Shown here piece after piece: positions 3,858 through 45,466 of a stretch of DNA of 64,000 bases (position 1 is the first letter of the stretch; every line of letters begins with the position of its first letter). Position numbers and translations under genes: made by a program. Where the stretch lies: the IMG/VR virus record IMGVR_UViG_3300021963_000030; one strand, 5' to 3'. A model generated the notes under the pieces. That model saw only the letters and a list, made by a program, of their open reading frames with translations, made no database searches and had not been told where the DNA came from. This DNA is from a virus.

Positions 3858-4231
3858 AGTAGTTTACGTATAATCAAATAGATAAACAAACTGCAAATAT
3901 AGTTAATTGGAAACAATAACAATGTATAGATCTGATGATAACCAGATCCAAATACTAATAAACCAACTGTCACTAGTGTTGACCAAAAACATAGACAAAT
4001 TGGACACGATATTAACTTGGTAAAGTAACTTGGATAATTACTATACAAAAAGTTAGGATAGTTTGACATTACGTCAACTTCTGCTTTGTATTTAGTAAAT
4101 TCATCTATTCTGAATAACCATTTTGTGTTGGTTAATGTAGCTATGGTTGTAACGATATCACTTTCAAACCAAACTACCAACATAAATGATATCCAACAAA
4201 TTAGAGGAATGTCAAGATCAGCGAGGTTCAT
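3854..4231 (-). CDS. membrane protein, DUF1360-like
   Basis: Hydrophobic helices and LISCPICLCFW, a DUF1360-like CxxC motif. Confidence 0.6.
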   Translation of the reverse strand: MNLADLDIPLICWISFMLVVWFESDIVTTIATLTNTKWLFRIDEFTKYKAEVDVMSNYPNFLYSNYPSYFTKLISCPICLCFWSTLVTVGLLVFGSGYHQIYTLLLFPINYICSLFIYLIIRKLL

Positions 4232-19205: not shown

Positions 19206-21857
19206 ATGAGTTACAGCAAAAAAGTTGTTTATTTTGGATCAGATGGTGCGAGTGGGTATGCTAATGCGGCTAAGGGATACATTTATGACTTAATACAAAG
19301 TGGTCATGAAGTATTTTTTGGAACATTATCTGGTGCTCCAGTAAAAGACGATACTGAGTTTTATAACTATTTTCATAAGAATGTTAAGAAAATTCCAGTC
19401 TTTTCCAAGAAAGAAAAACTTGAAGGTGCGGATGTAGTAATTCATTTTACTCCCGATATTTGGAATAAAGTAATTAATTCTCACAAAGACTGGATTGGCA
19501 ACAAGAAAGTTATTGGTAGAACCGTATGGGATTTTGATCCTGTTCCTGACAAGTGGGTAAAAGACATTAACGACAGTATTGTTAATGTTGTTAGCGTTCC
19601 ATCCGAATGGTGTAAAAATGTGTTTATTAAGTCTGGTGTAAAAAAGGATGTAATTGTAGAACCACACACTGTTCCAAACATTAATTATACTAAATATGGT
19701 TTGGTAGATCTATTAAATAATGCTAGAGTATTTAGTCCAGTCCCCATCAATTATCAACGGTATACAAAACGAGTAAAATTCTTAAATATATCTTCATTGG
19801 TAGCACGAAAGAATACTGGATTTTTGATCGAAGCATATTTGGATTCGTTTACATTTGATGATGAAACTCTACTAATATGCAAGTTCACTGATCACATCAA
19901 TAATATCTCTCATATTGAAAAACATATACAAGAGATAATTCTAAAGAAGATCAAGAATAAAGAAAAAGATTATGCCTATGCTCCAATTGTAGTAATAAGT
20001 GAACGATTGAGTTTCGATAAAATTCAAAGTCTACATGATGATACAGACATTTATGTTAATGTATCTAAGGGTGAGGGCTTCAATATACCATGTTATACTG
20101 CTTCAAGAAAAAATAAAGATATTGTTACTCTATTACACGGAGGTATGACAGATTATCTGACAAACTATCCGAAGTTATTTGAAGTTGACTATAACACTGT
20201 TAATATCAGTAGTGTAGATAAAAGTGTAGATTTATCTATGATGATGTGGATCAATATGAATACTAAGAGTGTTGATCCTTCATATGAAGATTTGTGTAAT
20301 AGTCTCAAATCCGCCTATTATTCCAACATCAAAAAATGTGTATACTTTGATTCGGTTGAACTTTATCAACCACATACAACTTTGACTGAAGAGTCATCGC
20401 TGTTTCCAATTTATTTTAAAAACGGATGGCACAATGAATTGTTGACGGCAGGTATTTGGTCTGAAAAACAATCTGAAATGGTGATCGGTCCAGATGTTCA
20501 TAAGATTGAGTTTTTATTAGAAAGTGTTCAAGATAACGTAATAACTTTGACTATAAACGATGTGGATCATGTTTATCAAGTAAAACGTGGTCAGTATTCA
20601 TTAAAGGTAATTTCTAAAGAAGAAAAACATATCGAATTCGACTGTCAAACCACAGTGAATGGGTCGTGTGTAGGTAGAAATGAGGATAAAGATTATGGTG
20701 TCAAAATTGTTGACATTTACGTTAATGGTATCAAAAACTCAACGAGTAAGCTTGTATTAAAAGATGCAAATTTCAACGAACGTGTGCTTGTAGATAGTGG
20801 ATTTATTATAGAAAAATCGAATGTCTTGAACAAGGGTGAATACGGAGATATTATCATTAAGTTCAAAGAGTTGACTGATAATAACAAATACCCAAAAAAG
20901 ATCAATCTTGGTAAACAACTTTCATTTTATTCACATAGATCTGGATGGAATTATGTGTTACACAACATGGCCGCACTCAATAGTAACAGCGGTGTATATT
21001 GCGATGGTTTTATAGAAAATAATTTTAGTTGGAGAAAAACAGAGTGCATTCTTCAAAAGACAATTCCATATAACAAGAGTTGGGTCGGATTTATTCACAA
21101 CCCACCAAACATGCCACCATGGTTTAGTGATAATAATGCGTTTTGTAACATCATATTGCAAGATCCATATTTTCTAGATAGTCTTAGAAAATGTAAAGGG
21201 TTATATACACTGTCAGAGTATCACGCCAAAGTAATACGACAGTATGTTCCATTTGTTCCAGTCGAGTCATTGTATCATCCAACTGAAATTCCAGAGTTAC
21301 AATTTGATTTCGAAAAATTTGTCAAGAATCCAGAAAAGAAACTTATCACTATTGGATGGTGGCTTCGTAAGTTAAATGCATTATATACCGTTAACCCCGA
21401 CGGATATCAGAAGGTAAGATTGCTGCCAAACAACAAGTGTAAAGATACAATTTTTAGATTGGAAAAAATAGAATCATTGGTCAACAATCAACAAATAACT
21501 GACGAACAAAGAAATTCTGTAAGAATACTTGACTTCTTACCTAATGATGAATATGATAAGATACTGACTGAAAATTTAGTATACCTTGATTTATATGATA
21601 GTAGTGCCAATAACGGTATCATTGAATGTATGGCTAGAGCAACCCCAATATTTATAAATCGACTTCCCGCAATTGTTGAGTATTTGGGAGAAGGATACCC
21701 ACTATATATTGACAGTCAATATGACTTGGAAGCTAAAATAAAAGATTTAGATTTGATAAAGAAAGCACATCTTTATCTAAAAACAATAAGATACAAAGTT
21801 GAAATTGGCCACTTTTTAGAGAGTATGGTCAATTCAAAGATATATAAGAGTTTATGA
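19206..21857 (+). CDS. multidomain glycosyltransferase (GT4-like, beta-sandwich, second GT-B-like domain)
   Basis: N-terminal SGYANAAKGY, HFTPD, SKGEGF; C-terminal HRSGW, GFIHNPP, IGWWLRK, DSSANNGIIECMARATP. Confidence 0.8.
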   Translation: MSYSKKVVYFGSDGASGYANAAKGYIYDLIQSGHEVFFGTLSGAPVKDDTEFYNYFHKNVKKIPVFSKKEKLEGADVVIHFTPDIWNKVINSHKDWIGNKKVIGRTVWDFDPVPDKWVKDINDSIVNVVSVPSEWCKNVFIKSGVKKDVIVEPHTVPNINYTKYGLVDLLNNARVFSPVPINYQRYTKRVKFLNISSLVARKNTGFLIEAYLDSFTFDDETLLICKFTDHINNISHIEKHIQEIILKKIKNKEKDYAYAPIVVISERLSFDKIQSLHDDTDIYVNVSKGEGFNIPCYTASRKNKDIVTLLHGGMTDYLTNYPKLFEVDYNTVNISSVDKSVDLSMMMWINMNTKSVDPSYEDLCNSLKSAYYSNIKKCVYFDSVELYQPHTTLTEESSLFPIYFKNGWHNELLTAGIWSEKQSEMVIGPDVHKIEFLLESVQDNVITLTINDVDHVYQVKRGQYSLKVISKEEKHIEFDCQTTVNGSCVGRNEDKDYGVKIVDIYVNGIKNSTSKLVLKDANFNERVLVDSGFIIEKSNVLNKGEYGDIIIKFKELTDNNKYPKKINLGKQLSFYSHRSGWNYVLHNMAALNSNSGVYCDGFIENNFSWRKTECILQKTIPYNKSWVGFIHNPPNMPPWFSDNNAFCNIILQDPYFLDSLRKCKGLYTLSEYHAKVIRQYVPFVPVESLYHPTEIPELQFDFEKFVKNPEKKLITIGWWLRKLNALYTVNPDGYQKVRLLPNNKCKDTIFRLEKIESLVNNQQITDEQRNSVRILDFLPNDEYDKILTENLVYLDLYDSSANNGIIECMARATPIFINRLPAIVEYLGEGYPLYIDSQYDLEAKIKDLDLIKKAHLYLKTIRYKVEIGHFLESMVNSKIYKSL

Positions 21858-22276
21858 ATATCAAAGAAATATATTACAATAACAAGATATACACAGTGCC
21901 AACAACATCAGTAAAGCACATTGATAATAGCGACGTAACACAAATAGAAGAAGATTTGATAGTTTATTATTCGGATCAACATCAAGCTTGGAGAGAAGCT
22001 TCGTTAGACCTACAAAAAATGTATACGAATAAGGTAGTTGTAAATGTTTTGTCTGGTGATGAGACTTTAAAATTAAAAGTGAATGCCGACGACGTAATTG
22101 AAATTTTAGATAAAAAAGTAGTTAAGGTGAAGTTGGAATCAATTGTAGTGTGTGACGATGATGTTAAAAATATTTGGAAAGTAGTAGACCAAAGTAATGA
22201 CCTATGTAAGCTTTATAAAATATTTGATCAAAACAAACATCGATTAAGTGCTGAAAACAAAATATTCAATGGATAA
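21854..22276 (+). CDS. hypothetical protein
   Basis: 140-aa ORF with ATGA overlap. Confidence 0.65.
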   Translation: MNIKEIYYNNKIYTVPTTSVKHIDNSDVTQIEEDLIVYYSDQHQAWREASLDLQKMYTNKVVVNVLSGDETLKLKVNADDVIEILDKKVVKVKLESIVVCDDDVKNIWKVVDQSNDLCKLYKIFDQNKHRLSAENKIFNG

Positions 22277-22281
22277 AGTTA

Positions 22282-23376
22282 ATGAAAGATTTGTCTAAAA
22301 AGTTTTGTTTCAAACCATGGGACCATCTAGAAATTGGACCTGGACAAACACACAGATTACCAACAGAATACACTGAAGATGTTGTTTATCCATGTTGTTC
22401 AAATTGGATAAACAGATATCATTTTGGCAAAATTGACAAAGATATCAAATTTAATGATGTGTGGAATAGTGATAAAGCAAAGAAATTTAGACAATCAATT
22501 TTAGATGGTAGTTACAAATATTGCAATAAAACACTATGTCCTTGGATACAGAATAACAATTTGCCAGATGTGGACGATGTAATTTCTGGAAAACATGGAG
22601 AAGAAAAAAAGAATATATATCTGACCAAAGAATTACATTCTGATTATCCAAACTATATCAATCTATGTTATGACAAAAGTTGCAATTTAAAATGTCCAAG
22701 TTGCAGAAAAGATTTTGAATTTTTGACCGAAAAAAGCGACAGTGAATTATATTTGTATAAACTAGCGCATCAGAAAAATTTGATTGAATATTTGTATACA
22801 TGTAAGACAAAAACATGTGTCAATATAACTGGATCTGGAGACCCATTTGCTAGTAGGTTGTTTTGGGAACTTATTACTTCATTTGATGGTATCAAAAATC
22901 CATTGTTACAATTTCAGTTTCAAACAAACGGCGTTCTTTTTACAGAAGAAAACTGGAACAAAATGAAGAACCTACACAATAACTGTATAACAGCTGTAAT
23001 TAGTTTGGATGCCGGAACTGAAGAAACATACAATTACACCAGACGAGGTGGAGACTGGAATAAACTCATGAACAATTTGCAATTTGTCAAACGTCTTTTT
23101 GATGAAAAGAAATTGTGGTATGTTAGATTAGATTTTGTTTGTCAACAGAAAAACTACAAGGAAATCCCGCTTTTTATTGATATAGCAAAAAAATACAATT
23201 TTCACTGTTATTTGTCAAGAATTGATAACTGGGGAACATACTCCGAAGAAGAGTTTAAAGTCCACAATATATTTGATAAACATCATCCAGAACATAGTGA
23301 ATTTCTGAAAATAGTTAATCAAACATATGATTATGAATTCATCGATTTTGGTAACCTAAGTGAGTTCAGAAAATAA
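22282..23376 (+). CDS. radical SAM protein with N-terminal SPASM-like Cys cluster
   Basis: CNLKCPSC (CxxxCxxC), GSGDPF, QTNG, SLDAG; N-terminal FC..PW, YPCC, YCNKTLCP. Confidence 0.9.
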   Translation: MKDLSKKFCFKPWDHLEIGPGQTHRLPTEYTEDVVYPCCSNWINRYHFGKIDKDIKFNDVWNSDKAKKFRQSILDGSYKYCNKTLCPWIQNNNLPDVDDVISGKHGEEKKNIYLTKELHSDYPNYINLCYDKSCNLKCPSCRKDFEFLTEKSDSELYLYKLAHQKNLIEYLYTCKTKTCVNITGSGDPFASRLFWELITSFDGIKNPLLQFQFQTNGVLFTEENWNKMKNLHNNCITAVISLDAGTEETYNYTRRGGDWNKLMNNLQFVKRLFDEKKLWYVRLDFVCQQKNYKEIPLFIDIAKKYNFHCYLSRIDNWGTYSEEEFKVHNIFDKHHPEHSEFLKIVNQTYDYEFIDFGNLSEFRK

Positions 23377-23380
23377 AGTT

Positions 23381-24508
23381 ATGTCAGAAGTAATTCATTT
23401 TAATTCAAATCCTCTAAAATGGCATGGTGACTTAACTTTGTGTCACGATAAAACAATCAACAAGTCGTATAGATCGTTGGAAGATATAGGATGGGAATTG
23501 GAAAATTATGCACCTCACTATTGGGGGCCGATTAATCCAGAATATTATCAGGCCTCGACGTTGTTTGTCAGAAAACATAATGGCAAAATGGAATATGGTC
23601 ATTATGGAGACAGTCGTGCTACAGAAACATCTCTGTTGTTTAATGATGTTGATGCCGAATTCAATTTTAAAGATTTTGATTGGATACAAATTTTCTTAGC
23701 AGATGCTGGACCAACAATCCGCATGTTAGAAAATATCAAAATTCCAGTATTTACTACTGCGTATTATAACTTTGAATTTAAGAATTATGAACCCGATCTG
23801 GGCGTTCCAAATCCAGAACGATATATGCCGGATGTTAAAAAATTGACACTACCATATCATTACAATCGTGGTTTATTGGTCAATAATACTTTGTCAGTTT
23901 TACCAACGTGTGCTTATAACAATTTCTTTGGTGTTAATTTTAAGAATCTAATCAAGTTTAAAAAAGAATACGCTAAACATCACCGAGGCCTTCAACAAAA
24001 AGTTGGATGGCGTGGATCTATGAACTGTCATCAAAGATACTTACTTGTCAAGTTATCCCATGACAATTTTGATATGATTGATGCAAAACAGTGGGTAGGG
24101 ATACCAAATTATTGTCCTCCGGCAAATAAAGACTTTTCAAATCAATTCATATACAATGAATATATGACACTAGAAGATCAGATTACACAATTTGATTATT
24201 TGATTGAAGTTGGGGCAGGAGGATTTAGTGGAAGAGTGCCACACCTTATACAGTCAAATAGAATAGTGTTATCTACTGACCATCCAGTTTGGTCTTATGC
24301 TGAACATCAACTAGTGTCTGATATACATTACGTTAGAATAAAAAAGGACTTAAGTAATTTAGTTGAAAAACTTCAAGATATGAAAAATAACCCTCAGAAG
24401 TATGAGGTTATTAGAGATAATATGTATAATTTGTCAGAAACACACTTTACATTGGAAAATATCCGTAAAATTGTATACGAAACAATGTGCATCAGACTAA
24501 ACTTATAA
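23381..24508 (+). CDS. GT90 (CAP10/POGLUT-like) glycosyltransferase
   Basis: GWRGS, FDYLIEVGAGGFSGRV, HYVRIKKDLSNLVEK. Confidence 0.8.
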   Translation: MSEVIHFNSNPLKWHGDLTLCHDKTINKSYRSLEDIGWELENYAPHYWGPINPEYYQASTLFVRKHNGKMEYGHYGDSRATETSLLFNDVDAEFNFKDFDWIQIFLADAGPTIRMLENIKIPVFTTAYYNFEFKNYEPDLGVPNPERYMPDVKKLTLPYHYNRGLLVNNTLSVLPTCAYNNFFGVNFKNLIKFKKEYAKHHRGLQQKVGWRGSMNCHQRYLLVKLSHDNFDMIDAKQWVGIPNYCPPANKDFSNQFIYNEYMTLEDQITQFDYLIEVGAGGFSGRVPHLIQSNRIVLSTDHPVWSYAEHQLVSDIHYVRIKKDLSNLVEKLQDMKNNPQKYEVIRDNMYNLSETHFTLENIRKIVYETMCIRLNL

Positions 24509-24512
24509 ATTT

Positions 24513-25520
24513 ATGTATAGAATCACAAATATAATTGATAAAGATATTCATTTATATACGTTTGAATTCAAAAAACGTTCCAGCATCATTTTTCGGGAAT
24601 TTCCAAAGTTTTTAAATATTTATGTCGAAAACACCGACTTCGCATATTTGTTGAAACGATCTTCTTGGTTAAAAAATGAAAACTTAACTCATGTGAAAGA
24701 AGACTTCACATTTGACAAAGAGGTAGAACATTTATCTCACGCATCATTATTTTTGTTTGATGATTATTTTGGTAATTATCTACATTACTTTCTAGAAACA
24801 TTTCCTAAATTGGAATATTTCATGCGAATAAAAGAAAGTATCCCAGATTTAAAGTTGATTGTTCCTGACTTTATGTGGGATGTATCATTTATCAAAGAAT
24901 CTATTCTTTTGTATTTTGATAATAACATGAATGATGTGGTAGTATTAAGTGGTTCTAAACATTATACATGTGATAGATTGTTAATACCCAGTAATGTATA
25001 TCTATGGCCTGATAAGGGATATTTTTCAAGTATCATACATGACAGTTTTAAGACATTATCAAACAAGGTTACTATTGACGATAAAAAAGAAGGTGTGTAT
25101 ATTTCGAGACAAGATATTGTCAAACTTGGTTGGAGACACAATAGACATTTACAAAATGAACTAGAATTGATTGATAAGATCAAAACCAAATTCGATTACG
25201 ATATAATTGAGCTATATGATTTGAACATGTATGATAAAATCAAAGTATTCAAGTCATACAATAATATAATACAGACAAATGGTGCTGCTATGATAAATTT
25301 ATTGGTATGTCAACCAAATACAAACTATCACATCATTTCACATCCATTGTATGGTCCATGGGCAAACCCAATATTGAGAGACTCGGCAAATAGATTGGGC
25401 GTCAATTTTTATGATTACGATTATGCTAAATTACTTGAAGATCATGAACCTATTGTAGGTGATACCAATAATAGACCATGGCGATTGGAAAACATAGACC
25501 ACATGTTATCAAGACTATAA
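24513..25520 (+). CDS. GT61 (DUF563) glycosyltransferase
   Basis: NYLHYFLE, VYISRQ...R.LQNE.EL, QTNGAAMINLL. Confidence 0.8.
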   Translation: MYRITNIIDKDIHLYTFEFKKRSSIIFREFPKFLNIYVENTDFAYLLKRSSWLKNENLTHVKEDFTFDKEVEHLSHASLFLFDDYFGNYLHYFLETFPKLEYFMRIKESIPDLKLIVPDFMWDVSFIKESILLYFDNNMNDVVVLSGSKHYTCDRLLIPSNVYLWPDKGYFSSIIHDSFKTLSNKVTIDDKKEGVYISRQDIVKLGWRHNRHLQNELELIDKIKTKFDYDIIELYDLNMYDKIKVFKSYNNIIQTNGAAMINLLVCQPNTNYHIISHPLYGPWANPILRDSANRLGVNFYDYDYAKLLEDHEPIVGDTNNRPWRLENIDHMLSRL

Positions 25521-25523
25521 TTT

Positions 25524-26498
25524 ATGGAAAAGATAAAACTCAAAGGCGGATCATTAAGCGGCGTATATCTCATCAAGGATGACAAAAAAACATATGTGAG
25601 AAAAGAAGTTTCGGTGTTACACAATAGAGAATATGGATTTCAAAGATGGTATTCGCAACTTAAAAAGATTCAGAGATATAACTCATTGTTTCCAAATTTG
25701 TTTCCAGAGTTAATATCATACGGATTAGAAGAAGACATTGCATATTTTGATATGGAGTATTTAGAAAACGCCATATCAGCACATAAGTTTGTATGTTCAA
25801 CCACCGATCCCAAAAAGATTGAAATATTTCTAGAAAATCTATTATCGTCGATGAACAGACTTCATTCTGTTAAATTGAAATCTAACACGAACTCTCTCGA
25901 TCTATACATAAAAGAAGAAGTATTACAGAAGTTAAATGATGCTATAATTGATGATATATTTTTACAGTTTGTCAAACATAAAACAGTTAATGTTAATGGT
26001 TATGACATAAACGCTTTTTATTATGAAGTGGATAACTATACATCATTATTTAAAAAAGTATACAATAATCCAGTTGAGTGTTTTACTCACGGAAATATAA
26101 CATTGGAAAATTTATTATACGATGAAGAGAATGATAAATTATACTTCATAGATCCATACGAAGAAAACATAATCGACTCTTCTTTAACAGAGTATTCTCA
26201 GATATTTCAATCAACTAATTCAAAATATGAGATATATAATAACCTAGATATAGATGTGGTCAACAACAATTTGATTATAAACAACGTTGATAATTTTGGA
26301 GTAGACTATTTGAATAAATTGTTCGATGACCATCTACGCAAAACAATCAGTAATGATCAATACATAAGTGTAAAATTGTTTGAAGTATCTCAGTTTGTAA
26401 GAATGCTCCCATTTAAAAAAGAAATTGACAAAAATAAGATGTTATTTTTCTACATATTAGCATCGAAGTTATTTAATGATGTTAAAATCCTATTATGA
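25524..26498 (+). CDS. APH/choline-kinase-fold protein, candidate cyclitol/sugar kinase
   Basis: LKGGSLS Gly-loop, VRK, DMEY, HGNITLEN (Brenner-like motif with Asn), FIDP. Confidence 0.7.
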   Translation: MEKIKLKGGSLSGVYLIKDDKKTYVRKEVSVLHNREYGFQRWYSQLKKIQRYNSLFPNLFPELISYGLEEDIAYFDMEYLENAISAHKFVCSTTDPKKIEIFLENLLSSMNRLHSVKLKSNTNSLDLYIKEEVLQKLNDAIIDDIFLQFVKHKTVNVNGYDINAFYYEVDNYTSLFKKVYNNPVECFTHGNITLENLLYDEENDKLYFIDPYEENIIDSSLTEYSQIFQSTNSKYEIYNNLDIDVVNNNLIINNVDNFGVDYLNKLFDDHLRKTISNDQYISVKLFEVSQFVRMLPFKKEIDKNKMLFFYILASKLFNDVKILL

Positions 26499-27613
26499 CA
26501 GAATATGAGATAAATACTACATTGTCTGTAAATTATAAAATTAAAAACTCTCCGGGGATTTTTAATATGAATAATTTGGATTTATTGTATTGTAATTCGG
26601 ATGTATTTTCAAACCGAAGATTCCTTGTCATCGATGAAAAAATATATAAATTGTTTGCAAGCGAGATAAAACAATATTTTGAACATCACAATATATACAC
26701 AAAAATTGTGACGCTGGACTCGGAAGAGATTTCAAAAACAGATTCAAAGTTGATTGAGTTGTTGGAAGAAATTGAGAACTTTAACTTAAATAGAAGAAGT
26801 GAACCTATTATTTGTATAGGTGGCGGAATAATACTTGATATAGCTGGGTTAGCATCATCGTTATATAGAAGAGGTATACCATACATAAGAGTTCCTACTA
26901 CATTATTGGGAATTGTGGATGTATCTGTCGCAGCTAAAACCGCAGTCAACTTTAAGAATAGACGAAATAGACTTGGATCGTATTATCCACCAATACTAAG
27001 TTTAATAGACAAATCATTTATATACACACAGACGTTGAGTGACATAAGTTCTGGTATGGGTGAAATTCTTAAGATGGCGGTAATCAAGGACCATGATCTG
27101 TTTTGTATTTTGGAAAAATATGGTTCCGAAATAATGCACAACAAGTTTAATCATCCACAATCCGATCACGTTATTCATCTGTCAATAAAAGGAATGATAG
27201 AGGAGTTAGAAAATAATTTGTGGGAGAAGAATTTAAAGAGACTTGTAGATTTCGGTCATACATTTAGTCCAATTATTGAAATGCGATCTCTTGGAACAGA
27301 TTGTGAATTAAAACATGGTCAAGCTGTGGCATTGGATGTTGTATTCTCTTCGATAATATCATATAATAGAAATATTTTATCGTATGACGAATTGGTAAGA
27401 ATTATAAACACATCAAAAAATCTTGACTTGCCAACGGCACATGAATATTTTTGTAACTTTTCATTTTTGAGAGAATCATTAAATGATGCTACTAAACATA
27501 GAAATGGAAATCAAAACATGCCTATTCCAACAAAAATTGGTGTGGGGAGTTTTGTAAATGATTTAACCGATGATGAAATAATAAAAGCAATCGAAGTTTT
27601 TAAAACTATATGA
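26495..27613 (+). CDS. sedoheptulose-7-phosphate cyclase, 2-epi-5-epi-valiolone synthase (ValA/AcbC) type
   Basis: IGGGIILD, RRGIPYIRVPTTLLGIVD, KTAVN, RNRLGSYYPP, GEILK, MIEELENNLWE, RLVDFGHTFSP, LKHGQAV. Confidence 0.85.
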   Translation: MTEYEINTTLSVNYKIKNSPGIFNMNNLDLLYCNSDVFSNRRFLVIDEKIYKLFASEIKQYFEHHNIYTKIVTLDSEEISKTDSKLIELLEEIENFNLNRRSEPIICIGGGIILDIAGLASSLYRRGIPYIRVPTTLLGIVDVSVAAKTAVNFKNRRNRLGSYYPPILSLIDKSFIYTQTLSDISSGMGEILKMAVIKDHDLFCILEKYGSEIMHNKFNHPQSDHVIHLSIKGMIEELENNLWEKNLKRLVDFGHTFSPIIEMRSLGTDCELKHGQAVALDVVFSSIISYNRNILSYDELVRIINTSKNLDLPTAHEYFCNFSFLRESLNDATKHRNGNQNMPIPTKIGVGSFVNDLTDDEIIKAIEVFKTI

Positions 27614-28287
27614 AAAAAACAGTAATAATAACAGGAGTTAGCAGTGGTGTTGGAAAAAAGGCGGTCGAAAAGTTCTTGTCAAAGAAATGGAATGTGATAG
27701 GGCTTTCTAGAAACAAAGTTGATTTTTCCAGTAAAAATTATTTGCATATAGAGACAGATTTGAAGAGCGTCGAGTCGATAAAAAAAACATTTGACGTTAT
27801 ATCCGATAAATTTGATTCGATTGATTTATTGATTAACAATGCTGCTATATTTAAAATGAAACCCTTTACTGAGTTTTCAGAACAAGAGATCAATGACATT
27901 ATAGATACAAATATCAAAGGGGTCATTTTTTGCACACTGAATACATTGAAAATTATGAAACAGGGTAGAATAGTGAATATAAGCTCTGTATCTGGAACGC
28001 ATGGAATAGAAAATCAATCAGTATACAGTTCGACCAAATATGCTCTAAATGGATTTTCTGAGTCTTTAAATCAAGAACTTATAAAGAAAAATATATTAAT
28101 CACTACAATTTGTCCTGGCGGAATAAATACCCCTTTGTGGAATGAGAAAAATAAATACCCAGGTGGTGACACAAACAAACTTTTGAAAGATGAAGATGTT
28201 GTGAACATGATAGAGTATGTATCTGAATTGCCTAAAAATGTAGTTTTGAAAAATGTAGTTTTGTTTCCAACATGCGAATGGCATTAA
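27610..28287 (+). CDS. short-chain dehydrogenase/reductase
   Basis: TGVSSGVG, LINNAA, NISS, YSSTK (YxxxK), ICPGGINT. Confidence 0.95.
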   Translation: MKKTVIITGVSSGVGKKAVEKFLSKKWNVIGLSRNKVDFSSKNYLHIETDLKSVESIKKTFDVISDKFDSIDLLINNAAIFKMKPFTEFSEQEINDIIDTNIKGVIFCTLNTLKIMKQGRIVNISSVSGTHGIENQSVYSSTKYALNGFSESLNQELIKKNILITTICPGGINTPLWNEKNKYPGGDTNKLLKDEDVVNMIEYVSELPKNVVLKNVVLFPTCEWH

Positions 28288-28291
28288 TATT

Positions 28292-28996
28292 ATGAATCTT
28301 ATACTAACGATGGCCGGTAAATACTCTCGGTTTGTCAACGAGGGATTTAAAATTCCAAAGTATCTATTACCTTGGGCAAATCACACGATATTGTCCGAAA
28401 TATTGTTTAATCTGACAAATCAAAATGTGTTCAAGAATGTATTTTTGGTTGCCAACAAAAACGATAAAAATTTCATGTATCAAATTTTGTATACAATGAA
28501 ATACTATAATATCCCGCAAGAAAACTTAGTCTTTATAGGTGATACAAAAAGTCAATGTGAAACCGCCTTACACGGCATTGATAGATTTAAAAATAGATTG
28601 GTGAACGGACCTATATGTTTTCATAATATAGACACTATATTGTATGAACGAGATTTACACCACATTTCAAATAGTTTGAATAAGTATGATGGATATATCG
28701 ATATATTTACTTCAAATAATCATGAATATAGTTACATATTAACTGATGACATATATGTAAAGGACATACAAGAAAAAATACTGATATCTTCTGTAGCCAG
28801 TTCTGGATTTTATGGATTTTCTAACACAGATACGTTTTTTAAATATTACGAGGATGACTACTTCAGCAAGACATATAGAAATATGATAAATGATGATAAA
28901 AAAGTAGTTTTTGGTAATTTACACAATGAGAATAATACTCTAGTGTTAGGAACTCCAAAAGAGTATTTTTACTTATCTAGTAAACACATCGTTTAG
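28292..28996 (+). CDS. nucleotidyltransferase (GT-A/NTP_transferase fold)
   Basis: LTMAGKYSRF...PKYLLP, HNIDT, ASSGFYGF, LGTPKEY. Confidence 0.85.
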   Translation: MNLILTMAGKYSRFVNEGFKIPKYLLPWANHTILSEILFNLTNQNVFKNVFLVANKNDKNFMYQILYTMKYYNIPQENLVFIGDTKSQCETALHGIDRFKNRLVNGPICFHNIDTILYERDLHHISNSLNKYDGYIDIFTSNNHEYSYILTDDIYVKDIQEKILISSVASSGFYGFSNTDTFFKYYEDDYFSKTYRNMINDDKKVVFGNLHNENNTLVLGTPKEYFYLSSKHIV

Positions 28997-29811
28997 TTGG
29001 AAAAGTAGTTTTTCCAAAACTTGTATACATCCACAATGTTACTTTCGTTAACATTGTTGTTTTCAATAATATATTTCCATGATCTAAAACATTCGACATC
29101 GACTGGAGTTCCAAGACATGCGTATTTTGTGGCATCATATTGGGTTACTTTTAGTCCATCTTGAATCATTAGGTTGTAAGGAACAGTAACATAGTATTCA
29201 CCATTGACGCAAATCTTTTCATTCATTAGACGATTGAAATAGTGTTTCATCAATTTACCAGTCTTAAAGTAATAGATACCATTTGATGCTGGTTCATTTG
29301 GTTTTACTAATTCCATGGGTTTCTTTTCATGCACATACGATACAAAACCCTTTTCATCCACCGTGAGAAATGCAAATGACTTGTTATACAATTTATGTGG
29401 CACAAAACCAGTGTGAGTCACAACAACACCATCTGAATTTGATTCTCGACAGTGTTTAAGAAAATCTGTAAAGTCCCAATTTTGTGTGAGATCACAATAG
29501 CTTACAATTACTTCTTCGTCATCGGGGATGTTGTCAAAAGCATTTGAAATCGAATATACAGGACCCAGTGTATTTTTGTCGATAGCTACAATCTTTGACA
29601 CCTTGGATTCTAATATGGCCCTTTCAATAGCGTTAGCTGACAAATCATCTTTTCTGACAATGAATATAAAGTCTTTGTCTTCTACGGTGGGAAACATGTC
29701 CAACACATAATCCAATATCTTTTTACCCTCGATCTTTATCAAAGCCTTAATTGGATATCCCTTTGATGTAAAACGTTCACTATTTCCCGAAAGTGTTATA
29801 ACAATCTTCAT
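28993..29811 (-). CDS. nucleotidyltransferase (dTDP-glucose pyrophosphorylase-like)
   Basis: LSGNSERF...IKALIK, VSYCD, ASNGIYYF, NGEYYV, LGTPVD; start placed at ATG 29811. Confidence 0.88.
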   Translation of the reverse strand: MKIVITLSGNSERFTSKGYPIKALIKIEGKKILDYVLDMFPTVEDKDFIFIVRKDDLSANAIERAILESKVSKIVAIDKNTLGPVYSISNAFDNIPDDEEVIVSYCDLTQNWDFTDFLKHCRESNSDGVVVTHTGFVPHKLYNKSFAFLTVDEKGFVSYVHEKKPMELVKPNEPASNGIYYFKTGKLMKHYFNRLMNEKICVNGEYYVTVPYNLMIQDGLKVTQYDATKYACLGTPVDVECFRSWKYIIENNNVNESNIVDVYKFWKNYFSN

Positions 29812-30250
29812 AAAATTTAATGTTGTCACTTATTATGCCATCAAACTGTAAAATTTCATCGACAGTATAGTTTGACATTTCTGGCATCATTAATATGCCT
29901 TTTCTATAAGTAGTAACTGTGTGCGGATTTATTAGAATTTTTCCTTTACTAGATAGTGTAAATTTATCATTGGTGTGACTGAATATGTCCAATACTGGTA
30001 ATGAACTCAATTTGAACAATGAAGCATCATCTTTACAGTGGATCAGTAATCTTGTATAATGTTTTTTCAAAAACTGGTCATTAATTTTCCACACGGGTTC
30101 ATCGTGACCTAAATATAATACATCATCTTTACACCAAATATCAATTTCGACATCATATCCCTCTGATATCACGTTTTCGATAACGGATGGAACGTTTTCG
30201 TTGATCTTATGACGACCCTGTAAGTTTCCTCTATGACTAATGAATTTCAT
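29780..30250 (-). CDS. GDPD/PLC-like phosphodiesterase-fold protein
   Basis: ISHRGN...EN, GYDVEID, LYLGHD, IHCK; start placed at MKFISHRG (30250). Confidence 0.8.
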   Translation of the reverse strand: MKFISHRGNLQGRHKINENVPSVIENVISEGYDVEIDIWCKDDVLYLGHDEPVWKINDQFLKKHYTRLLIHCKDDASLFKLSSLPVLDIFSHTNDKFTLSSKGKILINPHTVTTYRKGILMMPEMSNYTVDEILQFDGIISDNIKFYEDCYNTFGK

Positions 30251-30317
30251 TTTTACAATATATATTTGAAAGTCAAATTCCAAAACAACTATATCCAAAA
30301 TATAATAATTCATCAAA

Positions 30318-30345
30318 TTGACATGTCGTCTAGTTATGGTATGAT
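30318..30345 (+). promoter_or_regulatory. sigma70-type promoter with extended -10
   Basis: TTGACA-16nt-TATGAT with TGn, 15 nt before ATG 30361. Confidence 0.65.
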
Positions 30346-30360
30346 TGAATCTAAACTAAT

Positions 30361-30795
30361 ATGAAAGTTATTACAATACAACAACCGTTTTATTTAAAGT
30401 ATGTTTCGGCTCTCAAGAAGTTGACAAAAAAGTTATCTAGAATCAAGACCGAACCAAAAATTCAAAGAGAGTCTGATCTGTGGTATGGTCTTGAACAAGC
30501 AAATGACAAACCATTTAGGTGGTCTCATCCACTAACAAAGGTTAATATTCAAAACGTAGACAAGGTTGTATTTGTTTTTTCTGATCCAATTGGTCGAGAA
30601 ATGACTTTCAAATCAAAAGAGGTAGACCACACTATCAAGTTGGCACCAGGGGAAGAATACAAGGTAATTGTATCTACGTATGATGCAAATGAAATCTCCA
30701 TCAGAATAGATCCATTTAATCCAGATAACGACACACGTTCACTTGGTGCTCAATATTATTCTATCACTTCTGAAGATACATTGGTATTGAACTAA
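30361..30795 (+). CDS. GT-associated beta-sandwich-like domain protein (paralog A)
   Basis: WYGLE...FRWS...DP.GRE...NDTRSLG, shared with 32223-32648. Confidence 0.7.
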   Translation: MKVITIQQPFYLKYVSALKKLTKKLSRIKTEPKIQRESDLWYGLEQANDKPFRWSHPLTKVNIQNVDKVVFVFSDPIGREMTFKSKEVDHTIKLAPGEEYKVIVSTYDANEISIRIDPFNPDNDTRSLGAQYYSITSEDTLVLN

Positions 30796-30796
30796 T

Positions 30797-32215
30797 ATGG
30801 AGAAATACAATCAGAACAGTATTGATTTCTTACGAGAACGTAGTAATTCTTTGGTGTTGATATCCAAAGATAAAACTGTTCTTGATAGTTTGAAGTCTGA
30901 AAAAGACATTGAACTATATTTGATCGATGATATGGATGCTTTGAATGGTATTGGTATCTATAATGAATTGATCAAGAAACTTGGCAAAACGTTTGTATTT
31001 GTCAATAGTAGTTTCGAAGAAAATAAGTTCTTAAGGTTTGTAGTCAATAGAACGCTGAATGTATTTGAAAAGGAAAAGATTTTTTGTAATATTATCGTAT
31101 ATCCAAAATATGATTTTCCTCGTAAAGAGACCCTCAAGAAGATCAGTCTAATCAAGTTGTTCAATCGATCAAATATCGAATTGGACATCGTGGACTCGGT
31201 ATATTACGTTGGTCAGTATGGAACAAGTGGTTATGCTACCGCAGCTAAAGGTTACATCGCAGAATATGTTACAAAAGGTGTTCCAATTTGTTGGCACACG
31301 TTACGGTTTGATAGTAGTAAACTCGATACCACAAACTACGTCAATGCTCTTGCTGAAAGCGCAATGAATCGATCTTTGCCTGGTAAAGATCAAATTACGT
31401 TACATTCGACTCCCGATTTGTGGCCCGAGTTCATAAGAAAGTATGAATGTTCTAAATACAAACGTGTTGTGGGATATTGTGCTTGGGAAAGTAGTAAGTT
31501 ACCTTCTAAGTGGGTTGATTGTATTAACATGATACCTGAGGTATGGGTTCCGTCTGTATACAACAAAGAGGTTTATGAAAAATGTGGTGTCAAATCCAAA
31601 GTAGAAGTTGTGCCTCACGTATGGTTTGATCAAAAACTCTTGGATAAGAGTAAGATTAATATTACCGACTGTTTCGGAACTGAACTAAGCAAGACCAAAT
31701 ATACATTTTATAGCATTGGTGAGTTGACCGCACGTAAGAGTATTGAAGAGTTGGTTAAGGTATTTGACAAGTTAAATAATAAGTATCCTAATACCCAACT
31801 TCTTTTAAAGGTTCACTATAAAGATTATACTCTAAACAACATTAATTATATCGTTAACAAGTTGAGTGTATTGACTGATAAAATCGGTAAAAGTGTTCAC
31901 TTGTTGTTGATGAATCTTAACGAACGTGAAATGTTAAGTTTGCACAGTTTTGGTGACTGTTATGTAAGTCTTACTAAGTCAGAAGGATTTGGATTGACTA
32001 TCTTTGAAGCATTTCATCTTAAAAAGGATGTTATTGCTACTGGATATAGTGGTCACATCGACTTTCTTGGCAAAGACCATCCTGGATTGGTAAAATATAA
32101 AATTGGATCAATTCAAGGTATGGAAACGTTCAGTGCTAATTATACTAGTGACCAAGAATGGGCATACCCAGATTTGGAACATACTTATGCTTTAATGGAA
32201 TCAAAAGTGAAATAA
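30797..32215 (+). CDS. GT4-like glycosyltransferase with N-terminal extension
   Basis: SGYATAAKGY, HSTPD, WESSKLP, VWVPS, KSEGFGL. Confidence 0.88.
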   Translation: MEKYNQNSIDFLRERSNSLVLISKDKTVLDSLKSEKDIELYLIDDMDALNGIGIYNELIKKLGKTFVFVNSSFEENKFLRFVVNRTLNVFEKEKIFCNIIVYPKYDFPRKETLKKISLIKLFNRSNIELDIVDSVYYVGQYGTSGYATAAKGYIAEYVTKGVPICWHTLRFDSSKLDTTNYVNALAESAMNRSLPGKDQITLHSTPDLWPEFIRKYECSKYKRVVGYCAWESSKLPSKWVDCINMIPEVWVPSVYNKEVYEKCGVKSKVEVVPHVWFDQKLLDKSKINITDCFGTELSKTKYTFYSIGELTARKSIEELVKVFDKLNNKYPNTQLLLKVHYKDYTLNNINYIVNKLSVLTDKIGKSVHLLLMNLNEREMLSLHSFGDCYVSLTKSEGFGLTIFEAFHLKKDVIATGYSGHIDFLGKDHPGLVKYKIGSIQGMETFSANYTSDQEWAYPDLEHTYALMESKVK

Positions 32216-32222
32216 AAAAGTT

Positions 32223-32648
32223 ATGGATGACGCAATTATAATCAATCAATCATTTTGGAATAGACTCAAGAATATTTTGAGTGTCAAATCATTCAATAGT
32301 GCTAGCACATTGTCCTTGAGTGGAACTGACTGGCACGAAGTTGAAAAAGACTTGGATGGCAACAAGTTCAGATGGTCTTTTCCAAAAACTACAATCACAT
32401 ACGAAAATATATCAGCATTAAGAGTTAAATTCACATGTCCAGTAGGTCGAGAAGTTCGTATATACAATGACCGTATTAACTTCAAACAAAAGTTGACTCC
32501 AAACAAACCATACATATTTATAATTAACTGTGTTGGCACTAAAGACTTGACTATTGAGACAGATTCGTATATGCCAGAGAATGACACTCGTTCACTGGGT
32601 CTGTGCTTTGCTCAAGTGTGTGAACATCCAAGTCTATCTTGCCTGTAA
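32223..32648 (+). CDS. GT-associated beta-sandwich-like domain protein (paralog B)
   Basis: WHEVE...FRWS...CPVGRE...NDTRSLG. Confidence 0.7.
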   Translation: MDDAIIINQSFWNRLKNILSVKSFNSASTLSLSGTDWHEVEKDLDGNKFRWSFPKTTITYENISALRVKFTCPVGREVRIYNDRINFKQKLTPNKPYIFIINCVGTKDLTIETDSYMPENDTRSLGLCFAQVCEHPSLSCL

Positions 32649-32652
32649 AATA

Positions 32653-33690
32653 ATGAAAAAATTACTATATCTCTGTTGTCACTGTGTGTTGGAATATGAC
32701 GAACTCCGACTTCTTCATGAATTAGGTTATGATGTATTTACCAATGACGCATATCACCGTCCAAAAACGCCGGTAGTAAATAGAAGACCACCTCTGAATA
32801 TTGAAGATAAGCCAGATTATCTCCAGAAGTTTTACGATATGTGTCATGTCAATTCACATAATCCAGACGTTAAGCCAGAACAATACAATAACTTGTTGAC
32901 TGATGCCATGATTGATTCATTTGACACAATCATGATCATGCATCTTCCTAGATTCATTGAACAAAACTGGGATCGTATCAAACACAAGAATGTTATCTGG
33001 AGAACTATTGGACAATCTACTGCTGATGTTGAAGCCAAGATGCAAAAGTATCGTGCTGAAGGTCTGAAGATTGTTCGTTATAGTCCAAGTGAACGTGAAC
33101 TGGGTAATTACTGTGGTGAAGATGCGATGATTCGATTTGCCAAGTATAAGAACGATTATCTACCATATGTTGGCGATCAAAATTATGTGATGACGTTTGG
33201 TCAGAACGTGGTTGGTAGAGGTGATCATTGCAGATACGATTTGATTCGTCATGTTGCAAAAGATTTCAATTTCAAGTTGTTTGGACCAGGCAATCAAGCT
33301 GCTCCTATGGACTGTGGTGAATTGGACTACAAGGATCAGTTGGTTGAACTATCAAAGAACAAAGTCTATTTGTATAGTGGAACCTGGCCAGCATCTTATA
33401 CATTAAATTTCATGGAAGCCTGGATGAGTGGAATTCCAGTTGTTGCTCTCGGTGATGAACTCGCTAGCAAAGTTGGTAAGTTCCCATACGAAGTTAACAA
33501 GTTGATCAAACACGGAGAAAACGGATTCTGTTGCAACAATGTTGCTGAACTCAAGGAATGTATTCGTGAAATAATGACCGATACAAATTTTAGAAAGAAG
33601 ATCAGTGAGAATGGTAGAAAAGCTGCTATTGAATATTTTGATGCAGAATCTATCAAACCTCAATGGAAAGCATTTTTTGACAAACTATGA
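32653..33690 (+). CDS. GT4-like glycosyltransferase
   Basis: YTLNFMEAWMSGIPVV, IKHGENGF, ISENGRK; start placed at 32653. Confidence 0.85.
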   Translation: MKKLLYLCCHCVLEYDELRLLHELGYDVFTNDAYHRPKTPVVNRRPPLNIEDKPDYLQKFYDMCHVNSHNPDVKPEQYNNLLTDAMIDSFDTIMIMHLPRFIEQNWDRIKHKNVIWRTIGQSTADVEAKMQKYRAEGLKIVRYSPSERELGNYCGEDAMIRFAKYKNDYLPYVGDQNYVMTFGQNVVGRGDHCRYDLIRHVAKDFNFKLFGPGNQAAPMDCGELDYKDQLVELSKNKVYLYSGTWPASYTLNFMEAWMSGIPVVALGDELASKVGKFPYEVNKLIKHGENGFCCNNVAELKECIREIMTDTNFRKKISENGRKAAIEYFDAESIKPQWKAFFDKL

Positions 33691-34844
33691 AAGTATTTTG
33701 TGATTTTCACCATCGTGATTTAGTTAACTCAATGTGTCACCTATTCGAAAAAAGAATGGGTGCCGAACTGTATGTTCCTTATGGAATGGATTATTACAAA
33801 CAAGGATACTGGAGAATTGTTGATGCAAATATTGACAGTGTTGCGGAACAATTCTTGATAAACCAATTTGGTAATGATGGTCTACAAGAATTTACAGATA
33901 ATGAAGATGGAACAGTGTTGGTAAAGTCTAATGATGGTAAATTGCCATATAAAGGTATGGACTTTGAAACGTTCTGTAAAACTAAGTTCGACATCATTAT
34001 TGCTACTGTTCCAGCGCACATTCCTCTTTATATGAAGTTGTTGAAGGATCATCAACCTCAAGCCAAGTTTATTTTTGAAGCGGGTAACAATTGGGGTAAC
34101 ATCAACACCAACGTTCCCAACTTCTTGAATTCAACAACATATACATTTGTTTCGGGTGAAGATATACATGGGTTGACCATGACATCTCTTTACAAGAAAT
34201 TCCAAAAGAAGGACTTGTATAAGGGTATGCACAAGATATTCCAGAACAGACGTAATGGCAAGAAATGTAACATGGTTTTCTTCCATCCAGAATTTGATCT
34301 GAACATCTTTAAGAATAACAATAGTATCAAAAACATCAAGAGTATTAGTAACATACGTCATAACTGTAATACTCTTGGTGGGTTATATGAACTTGAACGT
34401 CGTTTACCAGATTGGACTATCAAAGCGTATGGTGTTGGTAATAGAGATGGCGAACTAAAGACAGATTATGACATTGCTAGAGTGATGAATGAATCTGGAT
34501 TTGTGTATCACGTTAAGCCTGTGGGTGACGGTTATGGATACAACGTTCACCAAACTTATGCTGTTGGTAGTATTTTGATTACAGACAGCAGTCACATGAC
34601 CAGCGCGGGAAATCCAGAAGAATGGTTTACGTCGCAACTATTATTGGACACTGAGAATTATGGAACCAAACCAACATTTGTTGATTGGGGTAAGTATAAC
34701 TACGACAGTGTGGTAAACAGATTGAAGTGGTGTGCCGATAACTATCCGACCATGCAAGAAAACGTCATAAATAAATTCAAAGAAGTTGTGGACTTTGATG
34801 AAGAATACCAAAAGATTCGTGTATTTATTGAAAGACTAATATGA
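33687..34844 (+). CDS. GT-B-like glycosyltransferase (paralog of 34841)
   Basis: MKVFCDFHH, GVGNRDG, HVKPVGDGYGYNVH. Confidence 0.7.
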   Translation: MKVFCDFHHRDLVNSMCHLFEKRMGAELYVPYGMDYYKQGYWRIVDANIDSVAEQFLINQFGNDGLQEFTDNEDGTVLVKSNDGKLPYKGMDFETFCKTKFDIIIATVPAHIPLYMKLLKDHQPQAKFIFEAGNNWGNINTNVPNFLNSTTYTFVSGEDIHGLTMTSLYKKFQKKDLYKGMHKIFQNRRNGKKCNMVFFHPEFDLNIFKNNNSIKNIKSISNIRHNCNTLGGLYELERRLPDWTIKAYGVGNRDGELKTDYDIARVMNESGFVYHVKPVGDGYGYNVHQTYAVGSILITDSSHMTSAGNPEEWFTSQLLLDTENYGTKPTFVDWGKYNYDSVVNRLKWCADNYPTMQENVINKFKEVVDFDEEYQKIRVFIERLI

Positions 34845-44713: not shown

Positions 44714-45466
44714 ATGAGTATGAATGAGGTTACAATAGTTGCTCCTGTTTATTTGGGTAAACCACATCGACTTGAATATTTTGAGACATACATAAAGTCA
44801 TGTTTGGCCCAACGTGATTTTGACAAAATGAACTTTGTGTTTATGGTCGAACCTGATGTAATGAATTTTGACTTACTCACAAAGTTACGACTGTATCCAA
44901 ATATTCGTATCATGGTCAACCCATACAAATACGGGTTATTGTTGAATCAATATATGACATTGTATTACAGTTTTGAAATACTTGGGCTAGAACACGTAAT
45001 TTATACCGAAGACGATTGTTTGATGTCGAATGATATGTATGACATCACCAAGTTTTATGTCAACTCACAGTATTATGACAACAATACTATACTGACGTAT
45101 TTAAACAAAGATAATTTGGTTGACCCACCACAAAATGATGACGGTAAGGATATACTAGAAGTTAAGTCGAACTTTCATCCAATTAGAACAGGTATGGTAT
45201 ACTTTGCTACATGGGGTTACTTATGCACACGTAAAATGTGGTTTGATTGTATGAAGAAGTGGCCACATCAATGGTGTTTCTCTGAACATCTTTTGCCTCA
45301 CTATTTGGATAAAATCAAAACGGTGACCCCAAGACTTTCAAGACTAAATCATATAGGAGTATTAGGTGCATCCTACAATGAAGAAATATACAAGAGTCAC
45401 GAATTTACCAATTATATGCCACCTATATTTTCAGAAAGGATAGAATACAAGTTTAATGAAATATGA
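44714..45466 (+). CDS. GT2-like glycosyltransferase
   Basis: TIVAPVY, IYTEDDC, TWGY, PRLSRLNHIG; start 44714 or 44720. Confidence 0.7.
   Translation: MSMNEVTIVAPVYLGKPHRLEYFETYIKSCLAQRDFDKMNFVFMVEPDVMNFDLLTKLRLYPNIRIMVNPYKYGLLLNQYMTLYYSFEILGLEHVIYTEDDCLMSNDMYDITKFYVNSQYYDNNTILTYLNKDNLVDPPQNDDGKDILEVKSNFHPIRTGMVYFATWGYLCTRKMWFDCMKKWPHQWCFSEHLLPHYLDKIKTVTPRLSRLNHIGVLGASYNEEIYKSHEFTNYMPPIFSERIEYKFNEI

Follow-up and report, generated by a model that had tools for sequence, protein, structure and literature searches.

The stretch analysed here (the window) comprises 64,000 nt and is nearly the entire IMG/VR record IMGVR_UViG_3300021963_000030, for which CheckV estimates a whole-record completeness of about 22%. 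The feature under study lies at 25524-30250 and had been put forward, from the sequence alone, as a single cassette for the activation of a C7-cyclitol (a carbasugar) inside an island of glycosyltransferase (GT) genes. Four genes on the plus strand come first. KIN (25524-26498) encodes a protein with a kinase fold of the aminoglycoside kinase (APH)/choline-kinase type and an atypical HGN loop, and is a presumed cyclitol kinase. It is followed by SPC (26495-27613), encoding a sedoheptulose 7-phosphate (S7P) cyclase of the EEVS type (EEVS being the synthase for 2-epi-5-epi-valiolone), by SDR (27610-28287), encoding a classical short-chain ketoreductase (adh_short, 9.5e-47), and by NT1 (28292-28996), encoding a small sugar-phosphate nucleotidyltransferase that is presumed to make the nucleoside diphosphate (NDP)-cyclitol. 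On the minus strand are a second nucleotidyltransferase gene, NT2 (28993-29829; NTP_transf_3, 2.9e-10), which converges on NT1 with an overlap of 4 nt, and a gene for a compact protein of 156 aa resembling glycerophosphodiester phosphodiesterases (GDPDs; 29780-30250). A GT61-family gene (24513-25520, plus strand; PF04577, 1.6e-17) and a GT90 gene (23360-24508; PF05686, 7.8e-8) are located upstream, and GT4 genes (30797-32215 and others, by Pfam) are located downstream. The plus-strand junctions consist of gaps of 3 nt and 4 nt and of two ATGA overlaps. The genes named in the preliminary description, their order and strands, their tight coupling and the convergence on NT2 and the GDPD-like gene were all found where it had placed them, and its GT61 and GT90 upstream and GT4 downstream are confirmed by the Pfam matches.

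SPC carries both domains of the 3-dehydroquinate synthase (DHQS) superfamily (DHQ_synthase N- and C-terminal domains; PF01761, 2.9e-28, and PF24621, 2.1e-23). Its best match among solved structures is PDB 4P53, the structure of ValA, which is the EEVS of validamycin biosynthesis (PMC4426668). As a single sequence, SPC scored 285 bits against 4P53 (residues 8-366), 191 against the desmethyl-4-deoxygadusol synthase (DDGS) 5TPR, at most 117 against DHQS, 87 against 2-deoxy-scyllo-inosose synthase (DOIS) and 78 against the 2-epi-valiolone synthase (EVS) entry 6C5C. A profile of the cyclase family (28 members) returned the same ranking with wider margins: 397 for ValA, 271 for DDGS, at most 171 for DHQS, 116 for DOIS and 108 for EVS. 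The metal-site region of SPC reads GHTFSPIIE, a pattern common to ValA and DDGS of which GHTFSP is invariant in the 28 members, and the motif of DHQS at this position is GHxxGHAxE. Furthermore, D252 (in VDFGH) and H335 (in KHR) align with an Asp and a His of ValA, whereas DDGS has Ala and Thr there; the ValA-type Asp and His are likewise invariant in the 28 members. We take these to be the positions that separate EEVS from DDGS, ValA 281 and 360, the residue numbers reportedly being those of Kean 2014 and Osborn 2015. In the chain of 4P53 the two residues count as D287 and H366, which equals 281 and 360 if a 6-residue tag is assumed.

Judged by the score margins and the invariant ValA-type residues, SPC is of the EEVS type and is neither a DHQS nor a DDGS, and at the level of sequence the S7P cyclase of the preliminary description is thus borne out. 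The readings of the enzyme as a DDGS of mycosporine synthesis or as a DHQS of the shikimate pathway were rejected on scores and motifs. We regard it as very unlikely that the cyclase yields another ring product or takes another sugar phosphate, in which case the pathway product would not derive from 2-epi-5-epi-valiolone. Such a deviation would be compatible with the moderate full-length similarity of the family to ValA and with a family known from sequence alone, and tree-based misassignment of sugar phosphate cyclase clades has happened before (PMC5133447). However, the ValA score is far above those of DDGS, EVS, DOIS and DHQS, both discriminating residues are ValA-type throughout the family, and several relatives have been named "sedoheptulose 7-phosphate cyclase" by NCBI.

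A search of IMG/VR with the cyclase family profile revealed relatives in at least 106 contigs, at 44–77% identity. The family profile was needed for this viral scan; a scan of genome contigs with the single cyclase protein returned ordinary DHQS genes only (27–33% identity). We fetched 82 loci through the cyclase and examined its neighbours. SDR was adjacent to the cyclase in all 82 loci and KIN in 80, and NT1 was present in 71; the loci without one of the members are mostly cut by a contig end. The KIN-SPC-SDR-NT1 arrangement is thus far beyond chance, and the co-occurrence of these genes in other genomes, which the preliminary description had anticipated, is borne out in cellular loci too. 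Two gene orders were observed. NT1-KIN-SPC-SDR is found in a large viral-only clade, and KIN-SPC-SDR-NT1 is found in the window, in loci L010, L003 and L016 and in all of the cellular loci. In a FastTree phylogeny of the cyclases, rooted on three DHQS sequences, 62 IMG/VR cyclases form one viral-only clade, the window together with L010, L003 and L016 falls in a second clade with metagenome proteins and a Woesearchaeota-labelled sequence, and four bacterial sequences make up a third. According to this tree, the phage cyclases fall in at least two separate clades.

Most of the IMG/VR loci in the main viral clade (L017-L081, for example L067:58-11065) have a larger conserved block around the module. 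Its first part consists of DUF6267, a small open reading frame (ORF), an Fe-S assembly-like protein, a GT-like protein, a methyltransferase and a DUF7796-like protein, and its second part of NT1-KIN-SPC-SDR, an unknown protein of 236 aa and an 853-aa fusion of a cytidylyltransferase and a zeta-toxin-like ATPase. Locus L003, on a 394-kb huge-phage-like contig (the same as IMG/VR L015), has the module plus Thg1, PTH2, IF3 and an Acb5-family gene, with a HAD-nucleotidyltransferase fusion and a GDPD-like gene near the module.

Five cellular loci were sampled, and in four of them the module is located inside a polysaccharide-type locus. On a Polynucleobacter chromosome, the same four genes are found in the same order among Wzz, ManC, GT2, GT9 and dTDP-sugar genes. 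The ordered set also occurs on a bacterial contig that carries Wzx, Wzy, GT2 and GT4, in a metagenome-assembled genome of the Kofleriaceae (together with GT4, GT2, a pyruvyl transferase and Wzx) and on a contig whose cyclase is labelled Woesearchaeota by NCBI (beside Wzx, PMT_2, GtrA and GT2). The presence of the four genes in cellular surface-polysaccharide loci fits a role in supplying a glycan with an activated donor. Among cellular genomes the module is rare, as exemplified by the Polynucleobacter strain, which alone matched among 301 sampled genomes of its order. No such cyclase was found in deposited phage genomes (none of 50,697 records); the seven matches obtained are at most 30% identical and look like DHQS of host-derived or misfiled records. 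The literature on valiolone or S7P cyclase in connection with phage, virus, O-antigen or capsule yielded no paper describing the module in a virus, and the partner genes of the cyclase carry generic names in public databases.

The matches of KIN to Pfam and NCBIfam are weak and limited to choline kinase and APH, and neither collection gave a match to the ROK family. Its AlphaFold2 (AF2) model (pLDDT 93.9) has Foldseek neighbours led by 5-methylthioribose (MTR) kinase and N-acetylhexosamine 1-kinase (NahK), with fructosamine-3-kinase, LicA, APHs and maltokinase among the others; the Foldseek probability is 1.00 to MTR kinase, NahK, LicA and APHs. K27, N196 and D210 are invariant in the family, by which the Lys for ATP and the Asn and Asp for metal are retained. 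N191 lies in an HGN motif, at the position where we would expect the catalytic-base Asp of an HxDxxxxN loop, whose canonical form presumably begins with HGD. Wherever the loop could be located in representatives of the core family (including P0248-P0364), it has the sequence HGNxT[LI]EN followed by IDPYEE, whereas in the nearest outlying relatives it is HGDLT[LF][EG]N and the Asp is present. The KIN profile also matches JAK2 chains in which this loop has HGN. A fusion of KIN and the cyclase was found once (P0281, on one 4.2-kb contig from one sample), as was a distant fusion of a nucleotidyltransferase and a kinase-like protein; both are consistent with the pathway proposed below but are weak evidence.

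Two further observations concern relatives of KIN. In P0253 (480 aa), a KIN homologue is fused to, or runs on into, a GIY-YIG/NUMOD3 homing endonuclease, which hints at endonuclease-driven mobility beside the module in some phages. In P0361, P0370, P0377 and P0392, distant KIN-like domains are joined to an MprF-type membrane domain (LPG_synthase_TM).

SDR has the motifs TGVSSGVG (TGxxxGxG) and Ser...YxxxK, and its nearest solved relatives are FabG-type ketoreductases; its presumed task is the reduction of the C1 ketone in the product of the cyclase. The profile of the NT1 family (A3) matches the NDP-sugar pyrophosphorylase 4EVW with 9e-33 over 230 positions, RmlA with about 1e-6 and the ribitol-5-phosphate cytidylyltransferase TarI with 2e-4. 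It also reaches IspD-like enzymes, and NT1 matched an entry of the ADP-glucose pyrophosphorylase family with 3.6e-4 only. The motif of NT1 is MAGxxxRF...PKYLLP, in agreement with the G-x-G-x-R-type loop at the N-terminus and the PK.L.P motif of sugar-phosphate nucleotidyltransferases.

Comparison with related loci revealed how the module is bounded in this lineage. L099, a contig of 190 kb, is a close relative of the window, with a GT4 that is 95% identical, an NT2 that is 88% identical and a 144-aa ORF that is 85% identical. It aligns to 21588-24506 and 29002-34000 of the window with nothing between, and in place of 24507-29001 it has 3.3 kb encoding a DUF6492 protein, two unknown proteins and a GT61 of 27% identity. 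L010 shows the reciprocal pattern, aligning at 24744-28984 (GT61 to NT1) and elsewhere only over about 0.8 kb at 20898-21712; here too, a GT61 (55% amino acid identity) is located directly upstream of KIN. The reciprocal alignments show that the GT61 gene and the four-gene core move as one unit, a five-gene cassette (24513-28996) that is swappable in the phage glycan island. Since GT61 moves with the core, it is the best candidate transferase for the product. The cassette is also the G+C minimum of the window, at about 0.30 (24001-28000) versus 0.33–0.39 elsewhere.

The radical SAM gene (22282-23376, with an N-terminal SPASM-type domain), GT90, NT2, the GDPD-like gene, the 144-aa ORF and GT4 belong to the backbone of the island and not to the cassette. 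A cassette-specific role of the radical SAM protein as a cyclitol-modifying partner was rejected, as L099 keeps this gene (64%) and GT90 (66%) without the cassette. NT2 and NT1 are distant paralogues (hhalign probability 96% over 220 columns). The GDPD-like protein belongs to a family of about 645 proteins, and HRGN, EN.P, VEIDV and GHD, which match the HRG, EN, ExD and HD catalytic motifs of GDPDs, are invariant in 29 sequences. Its profile matches the GDPD 7E0V (1.3e-4), and its AF2 model (pLDDT 94.2) has about 20 top Foldseek neighbours that are nearly all GDPDs (TMq 0.43–0.63); Pfam gave no match. With its 156 aa the protein falls short of a complete GDPD (about 220–250 aa), and the ORF reaches 30316 with an upstream TTG start. 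Motifs, profile and model thus agree with the earlier GDPD-like call, for a compact version of the fold. The gene is paired with a nucleotidyltransferase or a HAD-nucleotidyltransferase in L003, L099 and L100. The NT2/GDPD-like pair as a general part of a cyclitol pathway was rejected: it occurs in two of the 82 loci, and in L099 and L100 it is found without a cyclase. The interval as a single cyclitol cassette therefore stands for KIN-SPC-SDR-NT1 and falls for NT2 and the GDPD-like gene, which are kept in L099 without the cassette and in other phages without the cyclase.

Several lines of evidence place the island in a phage. It is flanked by genes for a family B DNA polymerase (PolB), two clamp-loader subunits, a deoxynucleoside monophosphate (dNMP) kinase and a UvdE endonuclease, as well as a lysozyme-domain protein, an SNF2-type helicase and an HNH endonuclease. 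The PolB is T4-like (phrog_262, 8e-177), with 43% identity to its best deposited relative, Microcystis phage Mel-JY01. The cyclase protein was found, identical, on 13 Logan contigs, and the six of these that were inspected, from different sequencing runs, repeat the gene order. In three of the six (L004-L006), the clamp-loader gene is located upstream of the cassette and the junction is included. From an identical junction in independent assemblies, together with the phage flanks, we conclude that the island is encoded by a phage and did not arise as an assembly chimera; the source is an uncultured T4-like phage. That the contig is bacterial DNA or a miscalled chimera, with the cassette as a piece of a host O-antigen locus, is extremely improbable. 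It could be thought of in view of the low completeness, the lack of a capsid or terminase gene in the window and the glycan genes that fill most of it, the majority of the other ORFs encoding GT2, GT4, GT61, GT90 and GT77-like transferases, UDP-galactopyranose mutase, GDP-mannose 4,6-dehydratase and sugar-type methyltransferases. Against it stand the replication, lysozyme-domain and HNH genes of the flanks, the agreement of the six assemblies including the three that span the junction, and the relatives carried by virus-like contigs of 56 kb and 190 kb. In addition, a tRNA scan of the window returned zero genes, and membrane proteins typical of O-antigen loci are lacking: a simple hydropathy scan of the 64 kb found no multi-pass membrane protein except one 125-aa ORF (3854-4231) with three predicted transmembrane segments, and no Wzx flippase, Wzy polymerase or ligase is visible within it.

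These observations establish the families to which the genes belong, the subclass of the cyclase, the near-universal linkage of the four genes, their presence in cellular polysaccharide loci and the cassette swap, and from them we infer every chemical step, the phosphorylation site, the nucleotide, the mode of transfer and the acceptor. The four-gene core probably converts S7P to a nucleotide-activated C7 ring pseudo-sugar. The EEVS-type cyclase would turn host S7P into 2-epi-5-epi-valiolone with loss of the phosphate, and SDR, whose family fits the reduction of a ring ketone, would reduce the ketone to a hydroxyl. The APH-fold kinase would then phosphorylate the cyclitol, in the simplest case on the pseudo-anomeric hydroxyl just formed, and NT1 would join the cyclitol phosphate to a nucleoside monophosphate to give an NDP-C7-cyclitol. 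Since the phosphate is lost in the cyclase reaction, the nucleotidyltransferase step calls for a kinase ahead of it, which explains the fixed trio of cyclase, kinase and nucleotidyltransferase. Finally, a transferase, with GT61 as the best candidate in this lineage, would add the cyclitol or the cyclitol phosphate to a glycoconjugate. We favour, with some confidence, the view that the core supplies an NDP-activated C7-cyclitol donor that is transferred to a glycoconjugate.

A number of observations weigh against this view. The positions taken to discriminate EEVS from DDGS were located in one alignment, and are two residues of the 14-residue fingerprint of Kean 2014. The usual catalytic base is missing from the core KIN family, which has a fixed Asn instead, and this lowers our confidence in KIN as an ordinary kinase. 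GT61 is linked to the module in one lineage only (the window and L010), and one bacterial locus, L094, has the four genes alone and lacks polysaccharide genes in the vicinity. No epimerase, dehydratase, HAD phosphatase or pseudoglycosyltransferase was found in the core or among its annotated conserved neighbours. As the core lacks an epimerase/dehydratase, the cyclitol product is probably saturated, and ordinary pseudo-glycosyl transfer from a saturated NDP-carbasugar, with neither a ring oxygen nor an olefin, is chemically doubtful. Known pseudoglycosyltransferases have been proposed to need the olefin of GDP-valienol, an oxonium ion being impossible (PMC3441724). The preliminary description had proposed that the phage diverts host S7P into an NDP-carbasugar and that a GT installs the pseudo-sugar on a glycan of the virion or the host surface; gene linkage upholds the activated-donor logic, whereas installation by a GT is insecure in the absence of a dehydratase and hence of an olefin.

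A saturated product and an olefin-dependent transfer make the transfer of cyclitol phosphate a serious alternative, although we still consider it unlikely. The NDP-cyclitol would then be a cyclitol-phosphate donor, like CDP-glycerol, CDP-ribitol or CDP-choline, and the product would be attached to the glycan by a phosphodiester link; this departs from the favoured pathway in the last step only. It would agree with the resemblance of the KIN fold to the choline kinase LicA and with the reach of the NT1 profile to ribitol-5-phosphate cytidylyltransferase and IspD-like enzymes. A 651-aa protein of the Sulfatase family (PF00884) is encoded beside the module in one bacterial locus, and a gene for a GDPD-fold phosphodiesterase is located a few genes from the module in the window and in L003. 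The NT1 scores, however, favour sugar-1-phosphate enzymes (4EVW and RmlA) over polyol-phosphate cytidylyltransferases, the scan of the conserved neighbours turned up no LicD, TagF or CDP-alcohol transferase family, and the GDPD-like gene is part of the backbone, outside the cassette.

It is less probable still that the product of the core (a cyclitol, its phosphate or an NDP-cyclitol) stays free as a small molecule, with a role as enzyme inhibitor, signal or protectant in infection, and is not incorporated into a glycan. Known C7-cyclitols such as validamycin, acarbose, streptol, kirkamide and gadusol are free bioactive compounds (PMC4426668, PMC9200736, PMC12904256), and L094 shows that the module can occur apart from glycan genes. 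In addition, the atypical Asn of KIN leaves scope for non-standard chemistry. Yet the other four sampled cellular loci have the module among flippase, polymerase, chain-length or GT genes, and the phage copies lie in islands rich in GT genes, with a GT being swapped along with the module. Moreover, nucleotide activation normally precedes transfer.

By analogy, the module would work like a shortened GDP-valienol or NDP-heptose pathway. In acarbose and validamycin biosynthesis, GDP-valienol is made through about nine enzymes (PMC9200736). The parts of these pathways include the cyclases AcbC/ValA, the 7-kinases AcbM/ValC, AcbO, AcbL and AcbN, the 1-kinase AcbU, the phosphatase AcbJ, the nucleotidyltransferases AcbR/VldB and the pseudoglycosyltransferases AcbS/ValL/VldE (PMC9200736, PMC3441724); ValC has been described as ROK-like (PMC9200736). 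The module resembles them in starting from S7P with an EEVS-type cyclase, in having an SDR-type reductase and in the logic of phosphorylation followed by nucleotidylation for a transferase. It differs in that it has four enzymes, a kinase of the APH/choline-kinase fold instead of the ROK type and a small, 4EVW/RmlA-like nucleotidyltransferase, and lacks the epimerase/dehydratase (AcbO, AcbL), the HAD phosphatase and the GT-B pseudoglycosyltransferase. It is also set in a phage glycan island or a cellular surface-polysaccharide locus, as opposed to an actinomycete antibiotic cluster. AcbN is an SDR-type reductase, and we take NT1 to be unlike AcbR/VldB. None of the adjacent transferases gave a match of the OtsA/GT20 type, to which AcbS, ValL and VldE belong; Pfam assigns them to GT61, GT90 and GT4. 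The genes thus do not look like orthologues of the Acb/Val enzymes, whose logic the preliminary description had applied to them. The cyclase alone fits, and the KIN fold, the small NT1 and the absent olefin-forming and coupling enzymes do not; for the kinase-fold gene, the small-molecule kinase fold is retained on the basis of the model and the AcbM/ValC type is not.

NDP-heptose pathways use GmhA, the kinase HddA/HldE, GmhB and the nucleotidyltransferase HddC/HldE. The module shares with them the S7P precursor, the kinase-then-nucleotidyltransferase logic and the setting in lipopolysaccharide or capsule loci. Unlike in the heptose route, a cyclase and a reductase replace the isomerase, a phosphatase is not needed since the cyclase removes the phosphate, the ring is carbocyclic and the kinase belongs to a different fold family. 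With pairs of an anomeric sugar kinase and a small nucleotidyltransferase such as AmgK/MurU, and with the anomeric kinases NahK and MtnK (folds via Foldseek), the module has in common an APH-fold kinase for a ring hydroxyl adjacent to the ring junction and, as the next enzyme, a nucleotidyltransferase of about 230 aa; it differs from these in the Asn that replaces the catalytic Asp of KIN and in a substrate that would be a carbocycle and not a sugar. The EboD cyclase of the ebo cluster and the cyclases of mycosporine-like amino acid and gadusol synthesis (DDGS, or EEVS plus MT-Ox) are further examples of S7P-using cyclases outside the classical antibiotic clusters (PMC5133447, PMC4426668). Their partner genes (in ebo, those for a prenyltransferase and TIM-barrel proteins; in the sunscreen pathways, those for an O-methyltransferase, an ATP-grasp protein or MT-Ox) are absent from the core of the module, and unlike the module, neither ebo nor the sunscreen pathways have nucleotide activation of the cyclitol.

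The known roles of C7-cyclitols are those of free antibiotics, enzyme inhibitors and sunscreens, and we found no paper placing them in a virus or in a surface polysaccharide. It is possible, and for now a tentative speculation, that many aquatic phages and scattered bacteria and archaea build glycoconjugates with a carbocyclic heptose mimic made from S7P. This would be a new class of glycan building block, with a link that cannot be cut as a glycosidic bond, made by a four-enzyme route with an Asp-less kinase and traded as a cassette together with its transferase. A phage-made pseudo-sugar of this kind would be beyond removal by ordinary glycosidases and would have consequences for how phage and host surfaces interact, for superinfection exclusion and for the decoration of virions. 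It would also represent a compact four-enzyme path to nucleotide-activated carbasugars, of interest to glycobiologists and to the chemistry of inhibitors. For enzymology, the consistent lack of the catalytic Asp in KIN is a puzzle that can be tested directly, and Polynucleobacter sp. 80A-SIGWE, with the four genes in an O-antigen-like locus, may serve as a cellular test system.

Other genes of the island were also inspected. The ORFs at 30361-30795 and 32223-32648 encode small paralogous proteins (144 and 141 aa; 30% identity, E = 2e-19) with no family match; each is located directly upstream of a GT4 gene, and the pair is kept in L099. GT61, GT90, GT77 and DUF3431 are families better known from eukaryotes. 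At 45456-47951, a UDP-galactopyranose mutase gene is followed by genes for two GT77-like Nucleotid_trans proteins, a combination that suggests the presence of galactofuranose in a phage-made glycan.

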